From sequence record PV636259.1: a stretch of 50,255 nucleotides of DNA, one strand, 5' to 3'. The position numbers and the translations under genes are program-made. Positions 281 through 50,255 of this stretch are shown piece by piece (position 1 is the first letter of the stretch; the number at the start of each line of letters is the position of its first letter). The stretch is from a phage. The notes below the pieces were generated by a model that had not been told where the DNA came from, ran no database searches, and was given only the letters and a program-made list of their open reading frames with translations.

Positions 281-1849
281 TTAACCCATCAGTCTAGGAT
301 TGATGAAAACAATATCATCAATGCGGCAAGTGTAGTTCATCTCTTCGAGCGTGATCAGCAGGCTGTCGATTCGCTCAGATACTTTCTGTTGACCGTTGAA
401 CGGCGTAACGTTCCGGCACTTTGCAACGATGCTATGAATAGGAGCGCGCCCTTTATTCTTCTTTGCGATCTCAGTGATAACATCAATCAGCTTACGAGAT
501 TCAGCCTCATCACCAGCATACCCGGCAGCGCTGGCAGACGACAGATAAGTCCTGGAAAGCTCATTAAAAATCATGATTGCTTCCTGCATCGTTTCAAGAT
601 CTATCTCACGATTGGAGCGGTTCGGAGATTCACCTTCCCAATTCTTTATCGTGTGAAGAACTGAAGCAATGCGCAATGCGTGCTTATCGAACTTACCGAG
701 ATGACCGCGTAGCATTGAGTGAGAGTATTTGCCACCTGCGGCGAAATCCGGCTCCATTGCCTGGCGCGCAAGGTTTAATTCACGCATAGCATTACGACTT
801 ACAGAAAGAACAACGTTTTCCTCCTTCATAATGTTGTGCACAAGTCGATAATATTTACTCACCAATCCTCGATCTACTTCCTTATACAGCGCATCACCAT
901 TTTCATCACAAAGAATACGAGTACCTAAAAGTGGTTCCTCACGAACTAAAAGGAAACGCTCAGATACGCCGATGCCTCGTTGGCCTGCGTCCATGATACC
1001 CTTGATTGTTTCATCCTGCGCAATAACGCAGATGGAACCGACCGGGCAAAGGGACAAGTTGTTATCCTGGTTGGAACGCGCTACCTCCATATGGTTTTTA
1101 TCCCACGCCTTAAGGATAAGCTCACTATTTGATTTCTTGTCTGAACCCCCATAAGTCAGGCCGAGCAATGTATTGATTGCTGTCGCCTCATCAGAGATTA
1201 CGGAGAAATGACCTTGAACAGCAGCTACCTTCGCAAGACCTTCAGGTGTAGGATCTGATACCGCGAAAACAATATCAGCCATCTTCTTGATCTTCTCTTC
1301 CAGTTTTTCTTTGTCTTCGTACAGCGCCGCCGTCGTGTTACCCTTCGGGTCGTTTTTAATTTCCTTCTCGACCTGACGTAGCTGACTGGTTAAGCGGATA
1401 CGCTCCTTTTTTCTCTCTTCGTTCAGTCGCTGAATTTCTGCACGCATAGGCGTAATCGCTGCGGAGTTAATCGCGGATTTACCTGTTGACGGTGGCTGGC
1501 TGATTACCATGTAAAGAGCGGTGGGTTGTTCTTCTCCGTGATATTGCACCCAAAACTTCCCGAGCATCGCGGCTGAGATGCACCCAATGAAATGAGCGTA
1601 CGCAGACGAAACAGGGAACTGTACAGACTCGGCCTTTGCTTTTGCATATTCGAATACCAGGTTATCGCCACCTAACGAAATCAGAGGGAACTTATCGTTG
1701 CCGCTATTGATATCGATCGGATCTTGCCAAAATGAAACTGAGTCACCATAGCTGTTTTCACGAATTGCGATTGCCACCGGATTAACTCCAGTGCTATTGG
1801 CGATCTCAATAATCTGTTGGTAATTCAGTTTTGGCTTAATATTAAACAT
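281..1849 (-). CDS. Large P-loop (Walker A-like PPSTGKS) protein, 522 aa; possible replication/recombination-associated NTPase
   Basis: Long ORF from the track; start moved to the ATG preceded by TAAGGAG (MFNIKPKL). Walker A-like motif and central K/E-rich coiled segment. Function not recognisable from sequence alone. Confidence 0.6.
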   Translation of the reverse strand: MFNIKPKLNYQQIIEIANSTGVNPVAIAIRENSYGDSVSFWQDPIDINSGNDKFPLISLGGDNLVFEYAKAKAESVQFPVSSAYAHFIGCISAAMLGKFWVQYHGEEQPTALYMVISQPPSTGKSAINSAAITPMRAEIQRLNEERKKERIRLTSQLRQVEKEIKNDPKGNTTAALYEDKEKLEEKIKKMADIVFAVSDPTPEGLAKVAAVQGHFSVISDEATAINTLLGLTYGGSDKKSNSELILKAWDKNHMEVARSNQDNNLSLCPVGSICVIAQDETIKGIMDAGQRGIGVSERFLLVREEPLLGTRILCDENGDALYKEVDRGLVSKYYRLVHNIMKEENVVLSVSRNAMRELNLARQAMEPDFAAGGKYSHSMLRGHLGKFDKHALRIASVLHTIKNWEGESPNRSNREIDLETMQEAIMIFNELSRTYLSSASAAGYAGDEAESRKLIDVITEIAKKNKGRAPIHSIVAKCRNVTPFNGQQKVSERIDSLLITLEEMNYTCRIDDIVFINPRLMG

Positions 1850-1903
1850 CACAATAAACTCCTTAGTTGACGGTGTAAATGATACACCGCCAATGGTACA
1901 CGC

Positions 1904-1921
1904 GTTTTGCAAAAAGTGCTA
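1904..1921 (-). promoter_or_regulatory. Operator/promoter motif copy (minus orientation; AATAGCACTTTTTGCAAAAC)
   Basis: Member of the TAGCA-N5-TGCTA family; followed on the minus strand by a hairpin and TAAGGAG RBS of the 281..1849 gene. Confidence 0.5.
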
Positions 1922-1925
1922 TTGG

Positions 1926-2342
1926 TTATAAGTATTTGGCCTCAAAGGTTGTGCCGTCAGCTATGCTAAAACCGATCTCTTCGCGAAATAATGTCCAACG
2001 GCAACCATCATCATCAAAAATATAACCAGCTACGCCGCCGAGAGCGCGACCGCTTTCCACTTGGTAACGCTTGCCAAGTTTGAATGATTTTTTCATCGGA
2101 TTTCGATGATCAAGTCCGGTGCACTTTAGCGTCTTTGTTTTCAACTCAGTGAACTTAGCGAAGAAGATTTCATCAGATCCGTGAATTTGTAATTCATCAT
2201 GCTTTTCAAGTTTTAAATACTTCCCGCATTTTAATTTTACTTCGCGAGTGCCATCGAAACGCTCTCGACCTTTGTATAGGTTGTTAACTTCAAATCCTGT
2301 GATTTTATCAGCGTAAGTACATTTCAGTTTGATTGATTTCAT
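1926..2342 (-). CDS. Hypothetical protein (138 aa)
   Basis: Track ORF; preceded (minus strand) by the ACCAATCAGGAG translation-initiation element. Confidence 0.55.
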   Translation of the reverse strand: MKSIKLKCTYADKITGFEVNNLYKGRERFDGTREVKLKCGKYLKLEKHDELQIHGSDEIFFAKFTELKTKTLKCTGLDHRNPMKKSFKLGKRYQVESGRALGGVAGYIFDDDGCRWTLFREEIGFSIADGTTFEAKYL

Positions 2343-2405
2343 CGCATTAACTCCTGATTGGTTATCTTGAATAAGGTCACTTTATCAAATGACCTTACGG
2401 CAATA

Positions 2406-2425
2406 TTAACAAATCGTGCTATTTA
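2406..2425 (-). promoter_or_regulatory. Operator/promoter motif copy (minus orientation; AATAGCACGATTTGTTAATA) overlapping the stop of 2423..2632
   Basis: TAGCA-N5-TGTTA palindrome followed by hairpin AAGGTCA...TGACCTT and the ACCAATCAGGAG leader. Confidence 0.5.
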
Positions 2426-2632
2426 CCAGGGAATATAATCGTCGTCGTCCTCATCAATATCATCGCCAGGTAACTCGAAGTTTGGATTATATTCGCTTTC
2501 TGCGTCCATATCCATATTCCCTAGCGCGTCATCAAGTGTGATTTCTTTATATGCAACCTTGATACACCATTCCGCACTAAGCCCGGCATCAAGAGCGGCA
2601 AAATAACGAGTCCAGAAATTATCCCGTTCCAT
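2423..2632 (-). CDS. Hypothetical acidic protein (69 aa; C-terminal DDIDEDDDDYIPW)
   Basis: Track ORF; start set to the ATG (second codon of the track ORF). Highly acidic C-terminus. Confidence 0.5.
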   Translation of the reverse strand: MERDNFWTRYFAALDAGLSAEWCIKVAYKEITLDDALGNMDMDAESEYNPNFELPGDDIDEDDDDYIPW

Positions 2633-2635
2633 CAA

Positions 2636-2860
2636 TTAACTCCATGAATTAATGTAAATTGAGTTAGCCTCAAGCGTAGCGCGCACATCAGCATCTGTTG
2701 CATTTACTAAGCGCGAGCCTGGCGTGCTGCCGATAACGTTATTACCGTTACGAGTCTTAGTTACCGTCATTGAAATAAAACCGGAAGACTTATCCATTTT
2801 GATAACTACACGGCCTTTCGCGTTCAGGTGCTTGATGATATTCTCAACTTTAATGCTCAT
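2636..2860 (-). CDS. Hypothetical protein (74 aa)
   Basis: Track ORF with AAGGAATTAAAAATG-type RBS on the minus strand. Confidence 0.5.
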   Translation of the reverse strand: MSIKVENIIKHLNAKGRVVIKMDKSSGFISMTVTKTRNGNNVIGSTPGSRLVNATDADVRATLEANSIYINSWS

Positions 2861-2919
2861 TTTTAATTCCTTTGTTTGTTTGGTGTGGGAGTAATATACC
2901 TTACTCCCTGCTGATTGTC

Positions 2920-2939
2920 TTTAGCTATTCGTGCTATCA
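2920..2939 (-). promoter_or_regulatory. Operator/promoter motif copy (minus orientation; TGATAGCACGAATAGCTAAAG)
   Basis: Motif then hairpin GGGAGTAAGG...TTACTCCC then RBS of the 2636..2860 gene. Confidence 0.5.
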
Positions 2940-3080
2940 GTACTCAGAAATTACTTTGCACTCTTTGATTGTGCCGCCTAGAACTACTTTCTGCATCATT
3001 GCTTTTTGATGGCTATCGTAAACGCGAACATTTTTTACGCTGTTAAATTTGCCAGTATAGAAAGTGTGAATATAAATCAT
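2937..3080 (-). CDS. Possible small protein (47 aa), translationally coupled (ATGA overlap with the 3077..3400 stop)
   Basis: Hand-translated MIYIHTFYTGKFNSVKNVRVYDSHQKAMMQKVVLGGTIKECKVISEY; below the track size cutoff; its stop TGA abuts the motif. Confidence 0.3.
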   Translation of the reverse strand: MIYIHTFYTGKFNSVKNVRVYDSHQKAMMQKVVLGGTIKECKVISEY

Positions 3081-3400
3081 TTTTTACCGTCCCAAGTTTG
3101 ATACGCCGTCACCAGGTTGATGCTATGATCGAACTCATCAATGCTTAGCGATCCGATTCGAACCAATTCTTTTTCATGCTTGATATCAATCATCCTGCTA
3201 TATGGATGACCTGGAACGTATTTGAACAGTCGCTTGCTGTCGGCAATGTCGGCATTGATCCCGTAGAATCTACCTACCGCCGCCTTCACGCGCTCCATGA
3301 TATTTTTTTCGTGAATTGCCGCCGCGTTATTCAGTGCCGCAACCGTGCTTGCGTTAATCTTCGGTGACTTCGTTGTGATTTTGTAAGTGTGGTTCATCAT
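3077..3400 (-). CDS. Hypothetical protein (107 aa)
   Basis: Track ORF; G-rich RBS (AAGGGGGG) before ATGATG. Confidence 0.55.
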   Translation of the reverse strand: MMNHTYKITTKSPKINASTVAALNNAAAIHEKNIMERVKAAVGRFYGINADIADSKRLFKYVPGHPYSRMIDIKHEKELVRIGSLSIDEFDHSINLVTAYQTWDGKK

Positions 3401-3414
3401 CCCCCCTTAACCAG

Positions 3415-3615
3415 TCAGGATAGTTTTCTCGCTTCATCAATGATAACAGGCTCGAGGCGCTCAAGTCGAACGCGGAACGTGTTCATAAATCCCTCGTTGT
3501 TCTTCAATAATTCGAAGGCATCCGTAGCTTCAATGGCGCTACTACCCATGTAAGCGATCACGCTCTTCTGAGTCTTGCGTGAGATCGCAACTACGCGGTA
3601 AATATTATCACTCAT
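3415..3615 (-). CDS. Hypothetical protein (66 aa)
   Basis: Track ORF 3415..3699 trimmed to the internal ATG preceded by GGAGG, which removes the overlap with 3608..3979. Confidence 0.45.
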   Translation of the reverse strand: MSDNIYRVVAISRKTQKSVIAYMGSSAIEATDAFELLKNNEGFMNTFRVRLERLEPVIIDEARKLS

Positions 3616-3979
3616 ACAATGCCTCCTTAACGCGATCTGCAATGCATGAGTTGACGGTGATTGAATAGTTAGCCACACCCCATAATGCAATATTGCCAAG
3701 CTCGGTCCGCATTGATGGGTTGTTAAGCTGGATTATTGTCTCTCCAGTATCATTATCAATGAAGCGAGACACGCCTAAATGGTCCATGGCGCGGGTTACT
3801 CGGTTCACGCACTCCATTGCATCACTTACGCCGTAATAAGCGCTTAGAGCGGCTCTCACTGCCTTCTCTTGCTTGTTGTAAATCTTTCGCGCAATGTTCT
3901 CGATCGCTACGTTCTCTTTCTCGTCAGTCTGGATTGCTGTGCTTGCTGAGAAGTCCAGGTCTACGAATTGTTTAAACAT
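3608..3979 (-). CDS. Hypothetical protein (123 aa)
   Basis: Track ORF; RBS GAGGTAATCACC before the ATG on the minus strand. Confidence 0.55.
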   Translation of the reverse strand: MFKQFVDLDFSASTAIQTDEKENVAIENIARKIYNKQEKAVRAALSAYYGVSDAMECVNRVTRAMDHLGVSRFIDNDTGETIIQLNNPSMRTELGNIALWGVANYSITVNSCIADRVKEALYE

Positions 3980-4035
3980 GGTGATTACCTCGTTTTCTGT
4001 TGATGGGAGAACTATAGCAGCCCTCCCGCATTTTC

Positions 4036-4054
4036 GTTTAGCAGAAAGTGCTAT
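4036..4054 (-). promoter_or_regulatory. Operator/promoter motif copy (minus orientation; AATAGCACTTTCTGCTAAAC) with downstream TATAGT and CATCAACAG leader
   Basis: Palindrome TAGCA-N5-TGCTA, then TATAGTTCTCCCATCAACAGAAAACGAGG, then the ATG of 3608..3979. Confidence 0.55.
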
Positions 4055-4240
4055 TTAGAATTTTACATCTTCAACAAGCTCAACCATTTTGTAACCAAGT
4101 CGATAGGAGTCCCCGAACAACAATAACCCCATAAATTCATCTTTGGTTATTGACTCCTTGCCAACAGTTTTAAGCTCTCCGTTGTGAATCACAGTATCGC
4201 CGATCTTGATTTCTGATTTGTGCACTAATTTCGTTTTCAT
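4055..4240 (-). CDS. Hypothetical small protein (61 aa)
   Basis: Track ORF. Confidence 0.45.
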   Translation of the reverse strand: MKTKLVHKSEIKIGDTVIHNGELKTVGKESITKDEFMGLLLFGDSYRLGYKMVELVEDVKF

Positions 4241-4255
4241 TTGTTAGCCTGTTAA

Positions 4256-4456
4256 TTAAAAGAATGCTACATAGTTTGCAATACCTTTAGCGTCGTCGTT
4301 AGGCATTGCCTTGACAGCCAAGTCATAACCAGCCTCTACCTTCTTCTTTGCTGACTCTTCGTTGTATCCCCAAATAACCAGGATTTTAACTACGTTTTCT
4401 TTGTTCAGGACTTTAAGTTCTTTAGTGATGCGACGTGCCATTTTGTTTTTCCTCAA
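4256..4456 (-). CDS. Hypothetical small basic protein (66 aa)
   Basis: Track ORF; preceded by a motif cassette with CATAAT -10 and CTCATCGAAACGAG leader. Confidence 0.5.
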   Translation of the reverse strand: MRKNKMARRITKELKVLNKENVVKILVIWGYNEESAKKKVEAGYDLAVKAMPNDDAKGIANYVAFF

Positions 4457-4498
4457 TCTCGTTTCGATGAGGTAATTATGCCAAATCGCACCGATCGA

Positions 4499-4519
4499 GT
4501 TTTAACAAAAAGTGCTATT
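4499..4519 (-). promoter_or_regulatory. Operator/promoter motif copy (minus orientation; GAATAGCACTTTTTGTTAAAAC) overlapping the stop of 4502..5206
   Basis: Full-consensus motif read as reverse complement; followed by CATAAT and the conserved leader. Confidence 0.55.
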
Positions 4520-5206
4520 CGCGATTGCTTTGAAAAATCCCCTTGGCGACAGAGATCGTATCAGTTTTGTTTTGGCAGACTTGCCGCCTAGCTTGCTGTG
4601 CTGTGCAGAGTACCCGTCAGGCAGTCTTACAGGTTTTCTTTCAGGCATGACAAAATCGTCAGAGGTCCACAGACAAGTTTTCTTCGGGTAAGCATCGCGC
4701 GGCGCAATATACATCGGGAACCAGGGGTGTGCGTCATTCTCTGGAAGATAGCCACCATACTCCCAGGGATTGAAGGAGTGATTTGGTTTTCTCCACGCAG
4801 AAGACAGGACGCTTACCGGATTCTCAATGATGTAAGTCACGCCCAGGCTATCGCCAATGTTCGCAGCAATCCGGGCGGTGGCAACAGCCTTCTCCTGGAA
4901 TAACGGATCGCGCTCACGCTTTCTGGCGAAGTGAGCAGCACCACTAACAGCCAGGTCAGTGCACGGCGGGAAGGCCATAATGAAATCAGGCTTGCCATAC
5001 ACGCCAGCGATAGCATCACGCTCGAACGCTGCGTCAATGAACACGTTCACATACTCAATGTTCGGATGCTCCACTCTGGCATTGTACTTTGCGTAATCTC
5101 CGTGATCGGCTCCGTCAAAGTTGAAGCACATCACCTTATGACCTTGCTTTGCCAGTTCATGACCAGCAAGCCCGGAACCGTCGAATAGTGACCAAATTAA
5201 TTTCAT
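4502..5206 (-). CDS. Short SAM-methyltransferase-like protein resembling the catalytic core of DNA cytosine-5 methyltransferases (234 aa)
   Basis: Order and spacing of FDGSG (motif I-like), FPPC (motif IV-like, Pro-Cys) and IENPV (motif VI-like ENV) match C5-MTase architecture; no target-recognition domain or motifs IX/X evident. First gene of the leftward early operon. Confidence 0.5.
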   Translation of the reverse strand: MKLIWSLFDGSGLAGHELAKQGHKVMCFNFDGADHGDYAKYNARVEHPNIEYVNVFIDAAFERDAIAGVYGKPDFIMAFPPCTDLAVSGAAHFARKRERDPLFQEKAVATARIAANIGDSLGVTYIIENPVSVLSSAWRKPNHSFNPWEYGGYLPENDAHPWFPMYIAPRDAYPKKTCLWTSDDFVMPERKPVRLPDGYSAQHSKLGGKSAKTKLIRSLSPRGFFKAIANSTFC

Positions 5207-5268
5207 CGTGACTTCCTCTTCTGATTGGTTTATGAGCTGGACTATACACGATCTACCCGACCGAGTCG

Positions 5269-5286
5269 TTAGCGAAAAATGCTATT
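5269..5286 (-). promoter_or_regulatory. Operator/promoter motif copy (minus orientation; AATAGCATTTTTCGCTAA) upstream of the MTase-like gene
   Basis: Followed on the minus strand by TATAGT and ACCAATCAGAAGAGGAAG RBS region, then the ATG at 5206. Confidence 0.5.
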
Positions 5287-5471
5287 CCAATAATTGCTCA
5301 TTATTCCATCAATACTGGAATATCTGGAATAATTACGATCATGATTGATCTCGAATGATGAAATGTGATTGTTGCATGGTGTGCAACAGTTGGTTGATTT
5401 GTTGCTTAGATTGCAATGATTGTGAGAGGGTGGATTTGGTGTTACCCGGTTCGCCTGGTGGTCATCTCCAT

Positions 5472-5490
5472 TTTTAGCAAAACGTGCTAT
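5472..5490 (-). promoter_or_regulatory. Operator/promoter motif copy (minus orientation; ATAGCACGTTTTGCTAAAA)
   Basis: Second copy in the control region, about 200 bp upstream of the first in the minus direction. Confidence 0.45.
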
Positions 5491-5893
5491 CGATTACACT
5501 TTAACTTGTCACGATTGTAATATTTGTCTAGAATCGCACTTGTGACAAAATTACGCACTGTGACGCCCCACAATAGACATATGGATATATGTATATATAT
5601 AATATATATAGTGTTTTTTTATTTATATATATAGATAATTATATTGTAATAGTTGTGTATAGCCGTCTTACATTGTCTAGCGTACTGTTGGCATATTTCT
5701 ATCTGCATGTTTATATATACAGTACTTTTTTGAGAGTCATATATTTCTATGTGTACTCTAGACAGCTAGACAAATGTTACACAGCTTAAAATTGGCTCGC
5801 AGGCATTGACGGCCCTGCATTGCGCTGTCACAATGGCAATTGTTGACATGTTATGACACCATTTACACATCAATAGACAAATGAGGATGGATT

Positions 5894-6409
5894 ATGAGCA
5901 ATACCAATCAGGAATTAAAAATCACCGATATGATTCGACTAACCTGCGATGCAATGTACCGCGACAAAGGCATGAATGAGTTCTCTTTCGTAGCTGATGA
6001 TATGGCCCTCGAAGCAGCGCGATTCTACTTTCGGGGCCAGGAAGTAAGCGATAGCGTTCTTGAATCTGCCGCTGCCGGATGGGTGGACCAGAATCAGGGT
6101 GAGGTGGAGAAGCGATTCAAGTCTGCTTTCATTACGCCAATCATTACCAGGCACTTTTGCAAGTATGGCAAGGTGGCAAAGGTGAAGGTGGGCCGGAATG
6201 ACGCCGCAATCACAATGATAACCGTTATCGTTACAGACGAAGAGGTTCCGGTGAAGAAACGCCGCAGCCGGAAAAAAGTTAGCCTGGCCGACTGCCTGGA
6301 TTCGTTTGATGTTGATGTTAGCAAACTATCCGATAGCGAGTTAATGGTTCGTGATGTGAATGAGATCGTGCGCCAGATGAAAGCACATATTGAAAAGTGT
6401 GGACTGTAA
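5894..6409 (+). CDS. Hypothetical protein (171 aa), first gene of the rightward early operon
   Basis: Track ORF; RBS GAGGATGG before ATG. Confidence 0.6.
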   Translation: MSNTNQELKITDMIRLTCDAMYRDKGMNEFSFVADDMALEAARFYFRGQEVSDSVLESAAAGWVDQNQGEVEKRFKSAFITPIITRHFCKYGKVAKVKVGRNDAAITMITVIVTDEEVPVKKRRSRKKVSLADCLDSFDVDVSKLSDSELMVRDVNEIVRQMKAHIEKCGL

Positions 6410-6415
6410 GGAGAG

Positions 6416-6682
6416 ATGAGTATGAGCAAGATTAAGCATGACGCCCTGAAAGGTATCTTGATGCGACTAAACCCAGGCGAAGCATTCCAGCTTAACCCCG
6501 AGACATTCGGGTTCGTCGGCTTCTATAGACTTGGCCTACAGATGAGTTCGCCAGCCGATGAGCTGGTCCGGTATGTGCGAAAGCAGTTCGGCGTCGAGAT
6601 GATTAGTCTCGGAAAGGTGCAAGGCATCCAGACATTCATCTTTAAGCCAAATGAGATTCGTTGCTTCACGCTGATGAAATAG
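6416..6682 (+). CDS. Hypothetical protein (88 aa)
   Basis: Track ORF; its stop TAG is the first three bases of a motif copy. Confidence 0.55.
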   Translation: MSMSKIKHDALKGILMRLNPGEAFQLNPETFGFVGFYRLGLQMSSPADELVRYVRKQFGVEMISLGKVQGIQTFIFKPNEIRCFTLMK

Positions 6683-6951: not shown

Positions 6952-7419
6952 ATGGCGACAATTACCGTATTCCTGGCTAAAGATGAGATTGATGGCGAAA
7001 TGTCATTCTTCGCGTTTGAGCACAAAACCGGATCGCACTGGCACATGTACAGTCACTACACGGTTATTGATATCAACTCATACCGCGCAGGCTCACTTAC
7101 TGAAAAGCTGGGTTGCTTCATTGGAGCTATCAAGGCGAACAATGGCTGCGATTGTGAAGATGAGCAAGAGCGTCGCATGTGCGATATGATTAACCCGGTC
7201 TATCTTGAGTCTTTCGATCTTGATTCTGATGTGACCATTAAGGTGAGAAAGTCGGGTGAGTTGTTGCCAGGGATGCGTGTGCTGACTGGTTACTCGGGCC
7301 GTAAGGTGTGGCGCACTGTATCCAAGATTCGCCAGCGTTCGGCAACATGCTATAGCGTATTCTTTAATGATGGCTGGAATGAGGTTGCTGGCAGTAACGT
7401 GAAGTATCTTACCAAATAG
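6952..7419 (+). CDS. Hypothetical protein (155 aa)
   Basis: Track ORF; stop TAG embedded in the next motif. Confidence 0.55.
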   Translation: MATITVFLAKDEIDGEMSFFAFEHKTGSHWHMYSHYTVIDINSYRAGSLTEKLGCFIGAIKANNGCDCEDEQERRMCDMINPVYLESFDLDSDVTIKVRKSGELLPGMRVLTGYSGRKVWRTVSKIRQRSATCYSVFFNDGWNEVAGSNVKYLTK

Positions 7420-7493: not shown

Positions 7494-7600
7494 GAAGGAA
7501 GCGGCAAACGTAGAACGGAGCCGCGAAAACCTCGAAGCAAAATTGACCTGGAAAAACCCATCAGGAAGGAAGCGGCAAACGTAGACCGGAGTCGCGAAAC
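7494..7600 (+). repeat. Two tandem copies of a ~36-bp element GAAGGAAGCGGCAAACGTAGA(A/C)CGGAG(C/T)CGCGAAAAC (7494..7530 and 7565..7600) in a 220-bp untranslated leader
   Basis: Read directly; each copy can fold GCGGC...GCCGC/GTCGC and carries an AGGAAG Shine-Dalgarno-like sequence with no ORF. Confidence 0.6.
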
Positions 7601-7638
7601 CCCAGGTTAAAAATTACACACCAATCAGAGGATTCACC

Positions 7639-7869
7639 ATGTCAATCATCAAGAACCAACAAGCCATCGACTCAACCAGCCACAACTGCTTTGCTATTTT
7701 CATCACTCGCGACAACAAGCGATTTGCTGTCAGGGCTGTACCGGGTGGATACAAAACCTATATGGAAAATAACGGAAAATGGGTATGCTGCGACAACCTG
7801 GCCAACTTCCTGGTATGGAACGCAGACCTGCAAGGATTCGACGATATCAGCACTTTAATTGAGGAATAA
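7639..7869 (+). CDS. Hypothetical protein (76 aa)
   Basis: Track ORF; preceded by ACACCAATCAGAGGA initiation element. Confidence 0.55.
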   Translation: MSIIKNQQAIDSTSHNCFAIFITRDNKRFAVRAVPGGYKTYMENNGKWVCCDNLANFLVWNADLQGFDDISTLIEE

Positions 7870-15352: not shown

Positions 15353-15877
15353 ATGAGTGAACCTAAGAACGCCCCCGTAGTCCAGGGAGGTAATTTCAAA
15401 GAGCTATACAAGAAAAAGTTCGGCACTGTTCTTGCTAAAAACCGGGCAATGACGCCTGAGCAACTATTCGATCTGTCAGTTAAGTATTTCGAATGGGCTG
15501 AGGACAACGCAATCAAGGCGTCAGAATCAGCCAGCTTTCAGGGTGGCGTTTATGAATCGCTAGTTCATAAGCCGCGAGTCTTCACCTGGACCGGATACCG
15601 ACTATTCATCGGTGCAAGCGAGGCCGCAATCATTAAGTGGAAGCGAGAGGAAGAATACAGTGAGGTTATGGAGTTTGTGGAATCGGTAATCAACGAGCAA
15701 AAATTCCAGCTTGCCGCCAACGGTGTTATTAATGCCTCCTTTATCGGTAAGGATCTCGGAATCGATAAGCCAGCCTCAATCAATATCGAAAACTCGTCAG
15801 CTTCCGCATCGACAGTAGTCGCCACTACTGAGGATGCAATGAAAGAGGCAGTAAATAGCATTCTTGACATGCTTTAA
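15353..15877 (+). CDS. terS: Terminase small subunit (174 aa)
   Basis: Position immediately upstream of the large terminase; size; basic N-terminal region. Positional inference. Confidence 0.55.
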   Translation: MSEPKNAPVVQGGNFKELYKKKFGTVLAKNRAMTPEQLFDLSVKYFEWAEDNAIKASESASFQGGVYESLVHKPRVFTWTGYRLFIGASEAAIIKWKREEEYSEVMEFVESVINEQKFQLAANGVINASFIGKDLGIDKPASINIENSSASASTVVATTEDAMKEAVNSILDML

Positions 15878-15901: not shown

Positions 15902-17485
15902 ATGGGAGACTTAATCATGATTCAATGGGAAGACCTTAACGCAACGCAGAAGTTAGCGATCAAGAAAATGAGCGAGGCCAATTTCGAAAAAATGATTCGG
16001 ATCTGGTTCCAGCTTATGCAGGCGCAGCAGTTCCAGCCTAACTGGCATCACCTTTACCTATGTCACGAAGTGGAGGAAATAATTGCAGGTCGACGCGGGA
16101 ACACTATCTTTAACGTCACGCCAGGTTCGGGTAAAACCGAGGTGTTCTCAATTCACCTTCCTGTTTACGCAATGCTCAAGTGCAAGAAGGTACGAAACCT
16201 TAACGTTTCATTTGCAGATAGCCTTGTAAAGCGTAACAGTAAGCGAGTTCGTGAGATTATCAGCAGCAAAGAGTTCCAAGAGTTGTGGCCCTGTAAGTTC
16301 GGCACATCGAAAGATGAAGAGATGCAAGTTCTTAACGAAGATGGCAAGGTCTGGTTCGAGCTAATATCCGCAGCAGCCGGAGGTCGAATCACAGGTTCGC
16401 GTGGTGGCTATATGATGCCGGGATTCTCCGGGATGGTAATGCTCGACGATATAGACAAGCCTGACGATATGTTCTCAAAGGTTAAGCGTGAGCGTACTCA
16501 CATGCTATTGAAGAACACCATACGATCCCGTCGTATGCACAACGAGACGCCGATTATCGCAATCCAGCAGCGACTGCACGCGCAGGATTCAACTTGGTTT
16601 ATGATGAATGGAGGTATGGGTATTGAGTTTGACCAGATCTCGATCCCGGCGCTGGTCACGGAAGAATACGGAAAGACGCTTCCTGACTGGTTACAACCTT
16701 ACTTCGAGCGCGACGTTTTATCGTCTGAGTATGTCGAACTTGATGGCGTCAAGCATTACTCGTTCTGGCCCAGTAAGGAAAGTGTACATGACCTGTTAGC
16801 GCTTCGCGAAGCTGACCAGTACACCTTTGACTCTCAGTATCAGCAGAAGCCGATCGCGCTTGGTGGCTCCGTGTTTAACTCGGAATGGTGGACTTATTAC
16901 GGCAGCAGCCTTGACGCTGACGAACCAGATCCGGGTAAGTACGACTACCGTTTCATCACTGCCGATACCGCTCAGAAGACAGGCGAGCTAAACGACTACA
17001 CAGTCTTTTGCTTGTGGGGTAAGAAGAACGATAAGGTTTACTTTATTGACGGCATTCGCGGTAAGTGGGAAGCGCCGGATATGGAGAAACAATTTACCGC
17101 TTTCGTTAATCAGGCATGGAGACACAATAAATCAATGGGCGTGCTTCGAAAAATCTACGTGGAAGATAAAGCGAGCGGTACGGGCCTTATACAGAACCTC
17201 AGGAAAAAGACTCCGATCTCTATCACTCCGTTGCAGCGTAACAAAGACAAAGTTACCCGCGCTATGGATGCTCAGCCAGTTATTAAAGCCGGGCGTGTGG
17301 TTCTGCCAGAAGAGCACCCCATGCTTGCTGAAATTATCGCTGAACACAGCGCCTTCACTTACGATGACACCCATCCGCATGATGATATCGTCGATAACTT
17401 CATGGATGCGGCGAACATCGAATTGCTGACCATTGATGATCCTATCGAGAGAATGAAGCGGCTCGCCGGGATGGTTAAGCGGTAA
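15902..17485 (+). CDS. terL: Terminase large subunit (527 aa)
   Basis: Size and position before portal; ATPase-like N-terminal region (GSGKT) and acidic nuclease-like C-terminal half. Confidence 0.8.
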   Translation: MGDLIMIQWEDLNATQKLAIKKMSEANFEKMIRIWFQLMQAQQFQPNWHHLYLCHEVEEIIAGRRGNTIFNVTPGSGKTEVFSIHLPVYAMLKCKKVRNLNVSFADSLVKRNSKRVREIISSKEFQELWPCKFGTSKDEEMQVLNEDGKVWFELISAAAGGRITGSRGGYMMPGFSGMVMLDDIDKPDDMFSKVKRERTHMLLKNTIRSRRMHNETPIIAIQQRLHAQDSTWFMMNGGMGIEFDQISIPALVTEEYGKTLPDWLQPYFERDVLSSEYVELDGVKHYSFWPSKESVHDLLALREADQYTFDSQYQQKPIALGGSVFNSEWWTYYGSSLDADEPDPGKYDYRFITADTAQKTGELNDYTVFCLWGKKNDKVYFIDGIRGKWEAPDMEKQFTAFVNQAWRHNKSMGVLRKIYVEDKASGTGLIQNLRKKTPISITPLQRNKDKVTRAMDAQPVIKAGRVVLPEEHPMLAEIIAEHSAFTYDDTHPHDDIVDNFMDAANIELLTIDDPIERMKRLAGMVKR

Positions 17486-36667: not shown

Positions 36668-37193
36668 TCGTGTGTCCTCGTCTTTAGTGTGATTGCATTG
36701 TATGTCGCATTTACTTTTATTGCAATAGTTCGATTACAATTTTTTCGTGTAACAGGTGTCTATTTTTGTAACCGGGAGGTGTGTTACAAAATCGACCTCA
36801 TTCGACCGCAGGGAGATATGATAAAAACTCTATATAATATATATAGATAGATAATATTTAATTTTAGCTTTATATATATAATTATTGTTGTGTAACAGTT
36901 GTATATCGTGTAACAGGTGATTTGATTGATTCGTCAAATTTCTATCATATTTGTTCAAAATATAATCAATCTTGATTCTATTCATGGATATCTGTGTATT
37001 TCTAAGAAAAAGCGGTTACAAGTATTACGAAATAGACACCACATAAAAACAGGATTAAGCCATTGATTCTGTTGATGCTGATTGTAACTTGAGCGATATA
37101 GACACGCTATTACACACCAATTACATGTATCCGATTGACTAAACGCTGTTAATGGCTATAATGGATTCATCGTAAACGAAGGAGATAAGCGCA
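36668..37193. promoter_or_regulatory. Second AT-rich divergent control region (upstream of cor/receptor-binding genes leftward and the recombination operon rightward)
   Basis: No ORFs; GTGTAACAG repeats at 36746..36758, 36889..36898 and 36907..36919 plus inverted TGTTACAC at 36781..36788; 16-bp TATATAATATATATAG (36831..36846) identical to 5596..5611. Confidence 0.6.
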
Positions 37194-38258
37194 ATGTTCC
37201 AGGTATTCACATCAAGTCAGCTTTCTAATGACGAGTATCATAGCAACGAAGGTTGGGCGGCAGAGTATGTAAGCGGATCGAGCCTTGCAGAAATTTATCA
37301 AACTTGCCCGGCTAACTGGCGATTCAAGAAGAACGAGACTACTAAAGCGCTGGAGTTCGGTACTCAGTCGCACACTAACTTTGAGAGTCGAGATCTGTTT
37401 ACTGCAACGTATGCGCGTTGTCCTGCTCCGTCAGAGTTTAAAGATCTTATTACTTCGCAAACGGCACTGGCAGCAAAATTAAAATCTTTTGGCCTGAAAG
37501 GTACATCCGGTAAGCAGTACCCTGACCTCATCAAAATGATGGTTGATTGCGGTGAAGATCTCAATGTTCAATATCTTATTGAACTGATTGCTGAAGCTGA
37601 GGCGCGCGCTGAAGGAAAGCAACTGGTTGACGCTGATAAATATGATGCCTGTATGAAGATGAGGGCCATTCTTGAGCAAAATCCCGATCATGAAGCGTGC
37701 ATCAATAGCGAAACTGCGCAGCGTGAGATCTCAATCTTCGGTGAGATATCCGGCGTAAAGGTTAAGGTTAGACTTGACCATCTGGACTACAAAGAGAATG
37801 TACCAGGTCGTGTGCTGACTGGTTATGATGAGAATGGAGATCCGGTATTCGAAGACGTTATTTTCCCGGAAGCACTGATTATCACCGACTTCAAAACAAC
37901 GATGAGCGCAAATCCGTTGGAGTTCCCGCGCCTTGCATATAATCACGGGTATTATCTGAAAATGGCCTTGCAGCATGATCTGCTACGACGCGCAATCCAG
38001 GCTGGCGCTTTTGAAGGCAACTTCCCTGAAGATATCCCGATCGTAGTTAGATTGCTTGCGCAGGAGAAAAAAGAGCCTTATATCGCACTGGCTTACCGTA
38101 TGACTATGGAGCAAATCAGGATCGGTCGTAACCAGTACATTAGCGTAGTCCACACTTACAAGGCTTGCTCTGAAATGGATATTTGGCCTGGGTACGCTGG
38201 CGACGCAAGCGAGATCGAACTTGAAACGCCATCATGGGTGCGTTACCAAAATAAGTAA
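37194..38258 (+). CDS. PD-(D/E)xK-type exonuclease (354 aa)
   Basis: IITDFKTT matches the D-x-K-T nuclease motif; followed by Erf and SSB. Confidence 0.6.
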   Translation: MFQVFTSSQLSNDEYHSNEGWAAEYVSGSSLAEIYQTCPANWRFKKNETTKALEFGTQSHTNFESRDLFTATYARCPAPSEFKDLITSQTALAAKLKSFGLKGTSGKQYPDLIKMMVDCGEDLNVQYLIELIAEAEARAEGKQLVDADKYDACMKMRAILEQNPDHEACINSETAQREISIFGEISGVKVKVRLDHLDYKENVPGRVLTGYDENGDPVFEDVIFPEALIITDFKTTMSANPLEFPRLAYNHGYYLKMALQHDLLRRAIQAGAFEGNFPEDIPIVVRLLAQEKKEPYIALAYRMTMEQIRIGRNQYISVVHTYKACSEMDIWPGYAGDASEIELETPSWVRYQNK

Positions 38259-45463: not shown

Positions 45464-46177
45464 ATGAAAGACTTTAATGATATCGAAACCATAGACTTTG
45501 CAGATACTGGGTGCTCATTCACTCGTGAAGCAATAGCATCAGGCGGTTATTATCAGGCACTGAAAACGCCGACCTGCAAAGAGATTTCAGGTCGTAGATA
45601 CAAGGGAACCAATACACCTGACGCCGTTCGTGATTTATGGTCAACTCCACGCGAGGTTATTGCATACCTTGAAGGGCGTTATGGGAAATATGATCTCGAC
45701 GCTGCTGCAAGCGAGGAAAATAAAGTTTGCGATAAGTTTTATTCCCAGGAAACAAACTGCTTGAAGCGTTGGTGGGGAAAGAATAAGCACGTTTGGTTAA
45801 ATCCTCCTTATAGCCGACCTGATATATTCGTCAAGAAGGCCATTGAGCAAATGGAGCACAACAATCAGATCGATATTCTTTTACCCGCAGATAACTCTAC
45901 GGCGTGGTTTACTGAGGCGCGGCAGAACGCAGCTGAAATCATCTGGATTGAAGCGGACTTGACTGAGGATGTTGACGGAAATGAATACGCACGATCCGGT
46001 CGCCTGGCTTTCATATCCGGTGAAACTGGAAAGGCCGTAGACGGCAATAACAAAGGTTCGGTAATTTTTATTATGCGCGAACTTAAAGAAGGTGAGGTGC
46101 AACAGACTCACTACATCCCAATCACAAGCATTTGCCCTTCGGTGAAAAACAAACGAGCAAAGGTGAGGAAAGTATGA
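45464..46177 (+). CDS. dam: DNA N6-adenine methyltransferase (Dam-type), 237 aa
   Basis: WLNPPYS (NPPY catalytic motif). Confidence 0.7.
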   Translation: MKDFNDIETIDFADTGCSFTREAIASGGYYQALKTPTCKEISGRRYKGTNTPDAVRDLWSTPREVIAYLEGRYGKYDLDAAASEENKVCDKFYSQETNCLKRWWGKNKHVWLNPPYSRPDIFVKKAIEQMEHNNQIDILLPADNSTAWFTEARQNAAEIIWIEADLTEDVDGNEYARSGRLAFISGETGKAVDGNNKGSVIFIMRELKEGEVQQTHYIPITSICPSVKNKRAKVRKV

Positions 46178-49996: not shown

Positions 49997-50255
49997 TCAA
50001 ATTCTTCTTTCGTAAGCTGGAGCCTTGCGCACAATTCGACGTTCCGATCTATCAATGTTTCTACGTTCGCCAAACAAATCCTCATCACTCATCTCTCCAA
50101 TGTGCATCATTTCCCACGTATACCGATTGTTGTAGCCATCAATACACATCAGCTTCATCATTACCGGGCGCTTAATCTTTCCCTTGCACCAGTAAAACCC
50201 ATCCCTGCAATCAAGATAACTCTCAGTTACACAGCGTGAGCAAAACTCCTTAGAT
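49997..50255 (-). CDS. 3' part of the junction-spanning Cys-rich ORF (same gene as 1..276; 50129..50255 duplicates 1..127)
   Basis: Hand translation ...CIDGYNNRYTWEMMHIGEMSDEDLFGERRNIDRSERRIVRKAPAYERRI-stop, with the stop at 49997..49999 on the minus strand. Confidence 0.4.
   Translation of the reverse strand, partial: SKEFCSRCVTESYLDCRDGFYWCKGKIKRPVMMKLMCIDGYNNRYTWEMMHIGEMSDEDLFGERRNIDRSERRIVRKAPAYERRI
50129..50255. repeat. Terminal duplication: identical to 1..127
   Basis: Read directly. Confidence 0.9.

Follow-up and report, generated by a model that had tools for sequence, protein, structure and literature searches.

Sequence record PV636259.1 holds a phage genome of 50,255 nucleotides, and this whole stretch is referred to here as the window. 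We analyzed the 687-bp region at 5207-5893. The leftward open reading frames (ORFs) span 281-5206 and the first rightward ORF begins at 5894, so the ORF-bearing operons diverge from the region. The three ORFs found mechanically inside it (5208-5348, 5355-5477, and 5589-5789) all contain stops or frameshifts in relatives, and hidden small genes were rejected on these grounds. The region is a real divergent, non-coding control region, and promoter-like sites hold their positions in other lineages. These results bear out the preliminary description of this DNA, which had called the region ORF-free and had doubted that 5589-5789 is coding. Each element it listed was found where it had been placed, and far more often than chance would give. 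Our reading, which we regard as probable though far from certain, sees here a composite control region at the genome end of a T1-like phage, built in three layers, and proposes that the product of the first rightward gene, gp1, would read a set of boxes whose sequence is swapped between lineages.

Homology places the window in the genus Tunavirus as a complete T1-like phage genome. The ~2.2-kb stretch around the region matched 69 phage records at 80-99% identity, nearly all of them named Escherichia or Shigella phages, and the relatives inspected were all Tunavirus or other Drexlerviridae. Positions 1-127 and 50129-50255 are 100% identical over 127 bases. The contig was closed as a circle and the identity is its assembly overlap, which leaves 50,128 bp of unique genome and means that the ends of the window do not mark physical ends. 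The left flank carries leftward homologues of T1p01-T1p09 plus a cytosine methylase (4502-5206), and the right flank carries rightward homologues of Shfl1p01, T1p75, and onward (the T1p75-66 side). The region therefore lies between leftward T1p01-side and rightward T1p77-side genes, homologous to the ends of T1. An alignment of eight Tunavirus genomes is the basis for conservation, junction placement, and promoter positions. Some relatives have an extra leftward gene of ~230 bp between the methylase and the leftward promoter (SA12KD, L002 3748-3981; Sso008, L005 1060-1200). Because this small gene is present in some relatives and absent from the window, the left edge of the region is itself, by this comparison, mosaic. 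The region and its first rightward gene contain the following features.

5221-5287, minus strand: predicted leftward promoter PL, with box AATAGCATTTTTCGCTAA (5268-5287), 23 nt, and -10 hexamer TATAGT (5241-5246); fits the box-class pattern described below.
5283-5331, no strand: nested inverted repeat, two TATTCCA (5283, 5302) facing two TGGAATA (5316, 5325); recognized by enrichment and conservation.
5335-5460, plus strand: candidate packaging initiation (pac) or genome-end zone; recognized by record starts, the T1 repeat annotation, conservation, and its non-coding character.
5472-5491, minus strand: perfect box copy with core TAGCAAAACGTGCTA at 5475-5489; identical in all aligned Tunavirus genomes.
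5506-5534, plus strand: predicted promoter PR1, TTGTCA-17-TAGAAT; promoter scan, 10/12 matches.
5516-5531, minus strand: box a, TGTAATATTTGTCTAG, 16 nt, an inverted copy of d2; covers the PR1 spacer and the first -10 bases.
5535-5564, plus strand: direct repeats CGCACTTGTGAC (5535-5546) and CGCACTGTGAC (5554-5564), in the putative initially transcribed region of PR1.
5571-5603, plus strand: box b, CAATAGACATATG, together with PR2.
5574-5603, plus strand: predicted promoter PR2, TAGACA-18-TATAAT; promoter scan, 11/12 matches.
5585-5645, no strand: TA-rich tract with the lowest duplex stability in the genome; could act as a DNA unwinding element.
5668-5685, minus strand: box c, an inverted copy with core TTGTCTAGC at 5673-5681; recognized from inverted-repeat pairs.
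5757-5781, plus strand: box d, tandem direct CTAGACAG and CTAGACAA with a ATGTTACA extension; ends ~25 bp upstream of the PR3 -35.
5806-5834, plus strand: predicted promoter PR3, TTGACG-17-TGtCACAAT (extended -10); promoter scan, 9/12 matches plus TG.
5826-5848, no strand: near-palindrome TGTCACAATGGCAATTGTTGACA over the PR3 -10 and start; lineage-specific.
5871-5887, plus strand: box e, CAATAGACAAATG; adjoins the Shine-Dalgarno sequence GAGGA of the first rightward gene.
5894-6409, plus strand: gp1, the first rightward gene, PHROG 11083, 171 aa; candidate box-binding protein.

The left third of the region is strongly conserved. Identity over 5264-5492 is 80-93% in every lineage and 93% to T1, compared with 21-60% in the flanking blocks. 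The records of T1 (AY216660, MK213796, and MN153797), phi2457T, JMPW1, JMPW2, and FCWL1 open with the base that aligns with window 5371, the Chapo record terminates at the base aligned to 5370, and the records of Shfl1, SH2, and Henu5_2 plus the unannotated contig EC22.5-2 start at 5358-5459. The alignment places the T1 record junction between 5370 and 5371. T1 base 1 corresponds to window 5371 and opens an annotated repeat_region (bases 1-2800), which is the terminal redundancy. The first base of the TLS record aligns between window 5374 and 5375, 4 bases from the T1 start, within the equivalent divergent intergenic region. The pac site of TLS was placed by restriction mapping of a submolar fragment (PMC11447400), and the SU57 paper assigned the pac of T1 and T1-like phages to this untranslated region (PMC7718038). 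Within the candidate pac zone are GATC at 5337 and 5347, a hairpin TGTTGCAtggtgTGCAACA at 5370-5388, and TGATTG repeats every ~25 bp (5342, 5366, a variant at 5393, and 5417); the top strand is G+T-rich, with just 10% C. The nested inverted repeat beside it holds 4 of the 12 genome copies of TATTCCA (P = 2.7e-5) and is kept in the aligned Tunavirus genomes and in Webervirus Solomon and SRT8. TLS has another palindrome pair at the same place, two copies of AGACCGATTGGTCT.

The small terminase, TerS, is 100% identical to T1 TerS, and TerS and TerL are 98-100% identical across the Tunavirus lineages in a comparison of five complete genomes. Conservation of the cognate small terminase is what is expected at a T1-like genome end, and the invariance of TerS and TerL fits an invariant recognition site. 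The record starts, the T1 repeat annotation, the TLS and SU57 placements, the conservation, and the non-coding character together indicate that ~5283-5460 is most likely the pac zone. The preliminary description had overlooked this role of the left third, which is best read as the T1 genome end. The search for pac is thereby narrowed to a ~130-bp invariant, non-coding zone. Contig ends were uninformative as evidence for pac, and so was co-variation of TerS with TATTCCA across genera, the TerS proteins of other Drexlerviridae all being ~50% identical. A literature search found no PhageTerm coordinates for a Tunavirus pac. ORF 5355-5477 overlaps this zone; its 40 codons would give a Cys-rich peptide (MMKCDCCMVCNSWLICCLDCNDC...) and are a side effect of the TG-rich repeats of the pac zone. 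The frame breaks off at codons 13-18 in T1, SA12KD, SA32RD, ULIM2, and Sso008 (in T1 by a stop at codon 13).

The pac sites of other phages offer comparisons. The P1 pac contains TGATCA/G hexamers under Dam control and the SPP1 pac has a pacL-pacC-pacR arrangement, with short repeats around the cut. The region similarly has short repeats on both sides of the presumed cut, adjoining GATC in a Dam-encoding phage, and a site outside the terminase genes, but the repeat sequences are unrelated. A Dam methylase is annotated in T1, and its homologue in the window (45464-46177) shares 98% identity. In P22, pac is part of the terS gene, whereas here the presumed pac is ~10 kb from terS and not within it. 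The relation of T1 TerS to the P22 type is distant (34-38% identity over ~100 residues), and the window TerS (15353-15877) is weakly similar over residues 34-137 (34-38% identity) to the small terminases of several ~33-42 kb Salmonella and Escherichia phages and 28-30% identical to those of two Vibrio phages. The T1 ends (AY216660 / NC_005833) offer a close likeness, in the flanking genes as well as in the identity, base 1, and TerS correspondences given above. The window phage differs from T1 in its extra cytosine-methylase gene on the left, in its box (CTAGACA versus CGATTAAC), and in a gp1 that is 52% identical.

The palindrome TAGCA-N5-TGCTA, with at most one mismatch, has 23 matches in the genome against 1.55 expected, and two of them are in the region at 5270-5284 and 5475-5489. 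The preliminary description had noticed both copies but misread them, as they are boxes of a promoter class already described in phage TLS. The oriented motif is AATAGCAC-N3-TTGCTAAA, and its region copies at 5268-5287 (3 mismatches) and 5472-5491 (0 mismatches) both point leftward. The same motif forms the 21-nt direct repeats aaATAGCACnnnTTGnTAAAA of TLS (PMC11447400). In ~20 copies genome-wide, the box is followed after 21-23 nt (mostly 22) by a -10-like hexamer (for example TATAGT, TATGAT, or TAGAAT), and this fixed distance is an addition of the present analysis. The palindrome center falls near -42, which by analogy with class II activator positions suggests a dimeric activator. The 5285(-) copy has TATAGT at 23 nt, and downstream of this hexamer are ACCAATCAG (5221-5229), a ribosome-binding site (RBS), and the methylase ATG at 5206. 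It is the predicted leftward promoter of the methylase operon. The perfect 5490(-) copy has no -10-like hexamer at the class spacing and is centered ~59 bp upstream of the predicted PR1 start.

The likeness to TLS extends beyond this motif. The box, palindrome pair, GATC cluster, TGATTG/GATTTG repeats, AT tract, tandem boxes, and promoter are collinear in the two phages, although TLS belongs to another subfamily and its palindrome pair and tandem boxes differ in sequence. Genome-wide there are ~25-30 box-class sites, for example at 6679, 7416, 8377, 9664, 11471, 11991, 13488, 45393, 46416, and 48404 on the plus strand and at 1922, 2422, 4054, and 4518 on the minus strand. Their -10 is often inside a short GC-rich inverted repeat (e.g. 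GGGCATTTGGTAGAATGCCC) followed by CATCGAMA. The sequence ACCAATCAG(A/G)(G/A)G has 14 genome copies (e.g. 5221(-), 5903, 7620, 12055, 25813, and 38313); about half immediately precede a gene's Shine-Dalgarno sequence or merge with it and the rest are inside ORFs, which suggests an extended translation-initiation motif.

Three promoters of the sigma-70 type are predicted rightward, each with hexamers at a spacing of 16-18 bp and with promoter-like sites kept in position in most aligned genomes. The counterparts of PR1 are TTGATT-17-TATGAT in T1, TTGACC-17-TACAAT in ADB2, and TTGTAA-17-TACCAT in DELF2. The PR2 -35 hexamer is TAGACA or TATACA in the other aligned genomes except DELF2, and its TATAAT is present in 8/8. 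The TTGAC of PR3 is kept in 7/8 (the exception is Sso008), and the SA32RD record annotates a promoter at PR3. The literature search turned up no transcript mapping for T1-like phages. With PL, this makes four concrete promoter predictions. Two repeat families of the preliminary description lie at these promoters. The CGCACT(T)GTGAC direct repeats are real but confined to the window phage's own lineage, and the near-palindrome at 5826-5848 indeed holds TTGACA but is equally lineage-specific; T1 has TGTAACAC-N16-GTGTTACA at that position.

The third repeat family is larger than first described. TAGACA-like boxes are genuinely enriched, but there are six rather than three. The region has 6 of the 15 genome copies of TAGACA, at 5525(-), 5574, 5674(-), 5759, 5767, and 5874, against 0.21 expected (P ~9e-8), and all 3 genome copies of TAGACAAAT. 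Box a is 94% complementary to 5766-5781, and box e itself occupies 5871-5883. The box sequence depends on the lineage, being CTAGACA in the window lineage, CGATTAAC in T1, CGGTTGCA in DELF2, and others in TLS and SRT8. T1, ADB2, ULIM2, JMPW2, and ISF002 have three tandem CGATTAACA at the position of box d, an inverted GTTAATCG at c, and GTTAATC in the PR1 spacer and before the RBS. DELF2 and AV106 have CGGTTGCA as two exact tandem copies plus a TGGTTACA variant, and an inverted TGCAACCG at c. TLS has two CGTGAACA and one ATGGAACA in tandem at d, with TGTTCCAT/GTTCACG inverted upstream at c, and SRT8 and IME-JL8 have two CTTATACA at d with TTGTATATAG inverted at c. The layout is constant (one inverted copy, AT tract, two to three tandem copies, promoter, and gene) while five unrelated box sequences occupy it, and Webervirus Solomon possibly has a sixth. 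It is found in Tunavirinae (Tunavirus and Sertoctavirus; Badaguanvirus is differently arranged) and in Tempevirinae. Each box is concentrated in the region within its own lineage and absent from the region of other lineages. The PR1 core is covered by a copy in two types, by box a in the window type and by a spacer box in T1, and DELF2 has a partial variant immediately downstream of PR1. Such overlap of repeated sites with a core promoter is what an operator array would show.

The protein that reads such boxes should change with them. The 87 ORFs of the window were compared by tblastn with five complete genomes of three box types, and gp1 was the only one of the 87 whose divergence follows box type. 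Its identity is 87% to SA32RD (same type), 52% to T1, and 47% to ADB2 (T1 type), and no match was found in DELF2 or AV106 among the five genomes searched. The positional homologue in DELF2 and AV106 has 191 aa and aligns with window gp1 over the same element succession. TerS, TerL, primase, and helicase, by contrast, barely vary, at 97-100% identity throughout the five genomes. TerS was rejected as the box reader because it is 98-100% identical across the three box types. The gp1 homologues hold the same position across Drexlerviridae; in T1, TLS, SRT8, and Webervirus Solomon the gene that comes first past the genome end belongs to PHROG 11083, and structural relatives are present in further Drexlerviridae. 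In the protein, a basic linker (KKRRSRKK) joins a variable N-terminal domain to a C-terminal part that closer relatives conserve. Since it alone tracks box type, gp1 probably binds the boxes via its variable N-terminal domain. Domain and fold searches with gp1 revealed no helix-turn-helix or ribbon-helix-helix signature and no significant fold similarity to any initiator, window gp1 matches no Pfam family, and a viral_contigs search with an alignment and three single proteins found no more distant loci.

These elements can be combined into one scheme. Terminase would recognize the conserved left module at ~5283-5460 and make the first concatemer cut there, packaging would proceed rightward from pac, and the ~2.8 kb to the right would become the terminal repeat of the first headful. 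The outward promoters would serve the two operons, the leftward box-class promoter the methylase operon and the tandem sigma-70-type PR1, PR2, and PR3 the early right operon. Lineage-specific boxes of 8-16 bp are woven through the rightward promoters and flank the least stable DNA, and gp1 bound to them through its N-terminal domain would most likely shut off or tune the early promoters of its own operon, PR1 being blocked at box a. Beside an easily melted tract, this gp1-DNA complex could also start replication. Early autoregulation and an origin both fit and are not exclusive. Autoregulation fits because one box lies over the PR1 core and another between PR3 and the RBS. As in known autoregulated phage early operons, the candidate binder is the first gene of the operon. 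The differences are that gp1 has no helix-turn-helix or ribbon-helix-helix signature and that the phage is virulent, so that there is no immunity function. The preliminary description had proposed that several regulators act here or that the region doubles as an origin. The repeats are indeed non-random and more than one DNA-binding factor is plausible; the origin stays a candidate.

Several observations weigh against this composite scheme. The pac zone is a candidate from sequence comparison, and the physical cut in this phage is a prediction from it. Many of the record starts were probably copied from the T1 reference and hence are not independent. The final TLS pac assignment leaned on a weak resemblance to the P22 pac (PMC11447400). 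The promoter scan returned 5 hits in this AT-rich DNA against 3.8 in shuffles, a count that does not exceed chance. Sites and candidate binder change together across three types, but gp1 adjoins the boxes, and the two could have been inherited jointly in a single mosaic block, which would look like co-variation. Arms resembling TAGACAA/TATACAA also flank PR1 in T1, ADB2, and SRT8 and precede the RBS in DELF2 and SRT8; because of these similar arms, some TAGACA elements (the PR1 bracket and boxes b and e) are common to several lineages, and the clean lineage-specific elements are c, d, and the T1 copies at PR1 and the RBS. Finally, inverted and tandem copies can also pair as a stem in RNA or DNA.

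The alternative that survives best makes the right part of the region a replication origin, in which transcription from PR1 or PR2 would run into the unstable tract, gp1 would be an origin-binding protein that reads the boxes with its variable N-terminal domain, and its C-terminal part would recruit the conserved helicase and primase of the phage. We consider this possible but doubtful; it can coexist with the promoter and pac functions. The preliminary description had expected the TA tract to melt easily, and 5585-5645 is in fact the least stable 60-bp duplex genome-wide (7% GC, z = 6.0). It lies 40-100 bp downstream of PR1 and is 86-97% identical in all lineages except DELF2. Inverted and tandem direct boxes flank AT tracts in five lineages, and a candidate array of putative initiator sites (two tandem copies, one inverted, and further copies) stands beside an AT-rich element. 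The variable N-terminal and conserved C-terminal parts of gp1 recall lambda O with its iterons, and helicase and primase are invariant. The TLS authors found no origin and no iteron-like repeats anywhere in that genome (PMC11447400). Other results disfavor an origin. There is no DnaA or IHF consensus site in 5207-5893, and a host-type origin was rejected on this account. GC skew is uninformative as an indicator, since its minimum near 5 kb falls where the genes change direction. The tandem box period of 8-9 bp differs from the 17-22 bp of classical iterons.

An equally unstable element elsewhere in the genome also counts against an origin at 5207-5893. A second divergent intergenic region at 36670-37195 separates a small lipoprotein-like gene from a recE-type exonuclease operon, and 36812-37012 within it is the second least stable DNA of the genome (z = 5.3-5.6), comparable to the TA tract. 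Its AT core at 36826-36915 is paralogous to 5575-5672 (alignment score 85 versus 39.5 +/- 6.5 for shuffles). This core lies by recombination and replication genes and does not co-vary with gp1. The second region has boxes of its own, (C)GTGTAACAG three times, ATAGACAC three times in both orientations, and GTTACAA-type repeats, and it is 93-95% conserved in all Tunavirus box types. It is an equally good candidate for an origin or early-control region. As an unlinked test of gp1 specificity, 36.7-37.2 kb was neutral, the boxes there being unswapped and 93-95% conserved.

Known origins frame this alternative. T4 oriF and oriG and the T7 primary origin combine a promoter with an unwinding element, and the iteron origins of lambda O and plasmid RepE/RepA have modular initiators. 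The region shares with them a promoter followed by the most meltable DNA, boxes by an AT-rich tract, and a variable domain co-varying with the boxes next to a conserved part. It departs from them in its abutting 8-9-bp boxes, its lack of DnaA boxes, and the lack of significant initiator fold similarity, and as an origin it is a candidate. The boxes, the unstable DNA, and gp1, which would then represent a small family lacking any detectable relative whose structure is known, might be the origin and initiator of the T1-like phages, with box and N-terminal specificity co-evolving modularly, as for lambda O and its iterons, beside the packaging start, an idea we put forward with considerable reserve.

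It is unlikely that boxes c and d act instead as a stem, either in the 5' leader RNA from PR1 or PR2 or as a DNA cruciform, that controls processing, stability, or translation of the first gene's mRNA. If only complementarity were selected, the free sequence change between lineages would be explained, and c and d stay complementary in the window, T1, DELF2, and TLS types, each with sequences of its own. In the minimum-energy fold predicted for each lineage, it is this pairing that closes the structure, with z of -4.3 in the window and -3.5 in DELF2, but z is only -1.7 in T1 and 0 in TLS. A known structured RNA was rejected because an Rfam scan of 5000-6100 was empty at E up to 1. Tandem duplication of one arm would be unnecessary for a stem, the 16-nt box a is upstream of the PR1 start and so outside the PR1 and PR2 transcripts, and the RBS-proximal copy is oppositely oriented in the window and T1 types. 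A stem also leaves the co-variation of gp1 alone unexplained.

Quite improbable is a right half that is just a fast-evolving mosaic junction by an arms-race gene, with gp1 an anti-defense protein, the repeats functionless by-products of duplication or recombination, and only pac and the promoters of consequence: first-injected phage genes are often anti-defense genes, the region is mosaic in blocks, the gp1 family is tiny and rapidly diverging, and the T1 homologue T1p77 has weak, sub-threshold Pfam matches to DUF7174 and the anti-CRISPR AcrF2 (window gp1 has none), but the same layout recurs with five unrelated box sequences across Tunavirinae genera and Tempevirinae, the boxes are strongly enriched and confined to the region, and a box covers the PR1 core in two types, window and T1, while DELF2 has a partial variant after PR1.

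Two further repeats were seen outside the region. A 51-nt unit occurs in two direct copies at 7494-7544 and 7565-7615 that are 82% identical and start 71 nt apart; they fall between the ORF ending at 7419 and the ORF starting at 7639, downstream of the box-class promoter at 7416. An exact 17-nt repeat, CGTGTGCTGACTGGTTA, is at 7276-7292 and 37809-37825, with 82% copies at 16677 and 28765.

The region of the window is an ordinary member of a conserved, family-wide module, and most items of the preliminary description are explained by known kinds of element. What is new is a layout of swapped boxes with which the first gene, and no other, co-varies. The wider interest comes from T1 itself, which belongs to the seven classic T phages, and from its relatives, notorious as contaminants of laboratories and fermenters. 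In the literature searched, the T1 pac sequence, early promoters, and origin are not defined at base resolution. The analysis singles out the PHROG 11083 family as the probable reader of a swapped box code, and gp1 becomes a candidate, open to testing, for the role of early regulator or origin-binding protein in the T1-like group.

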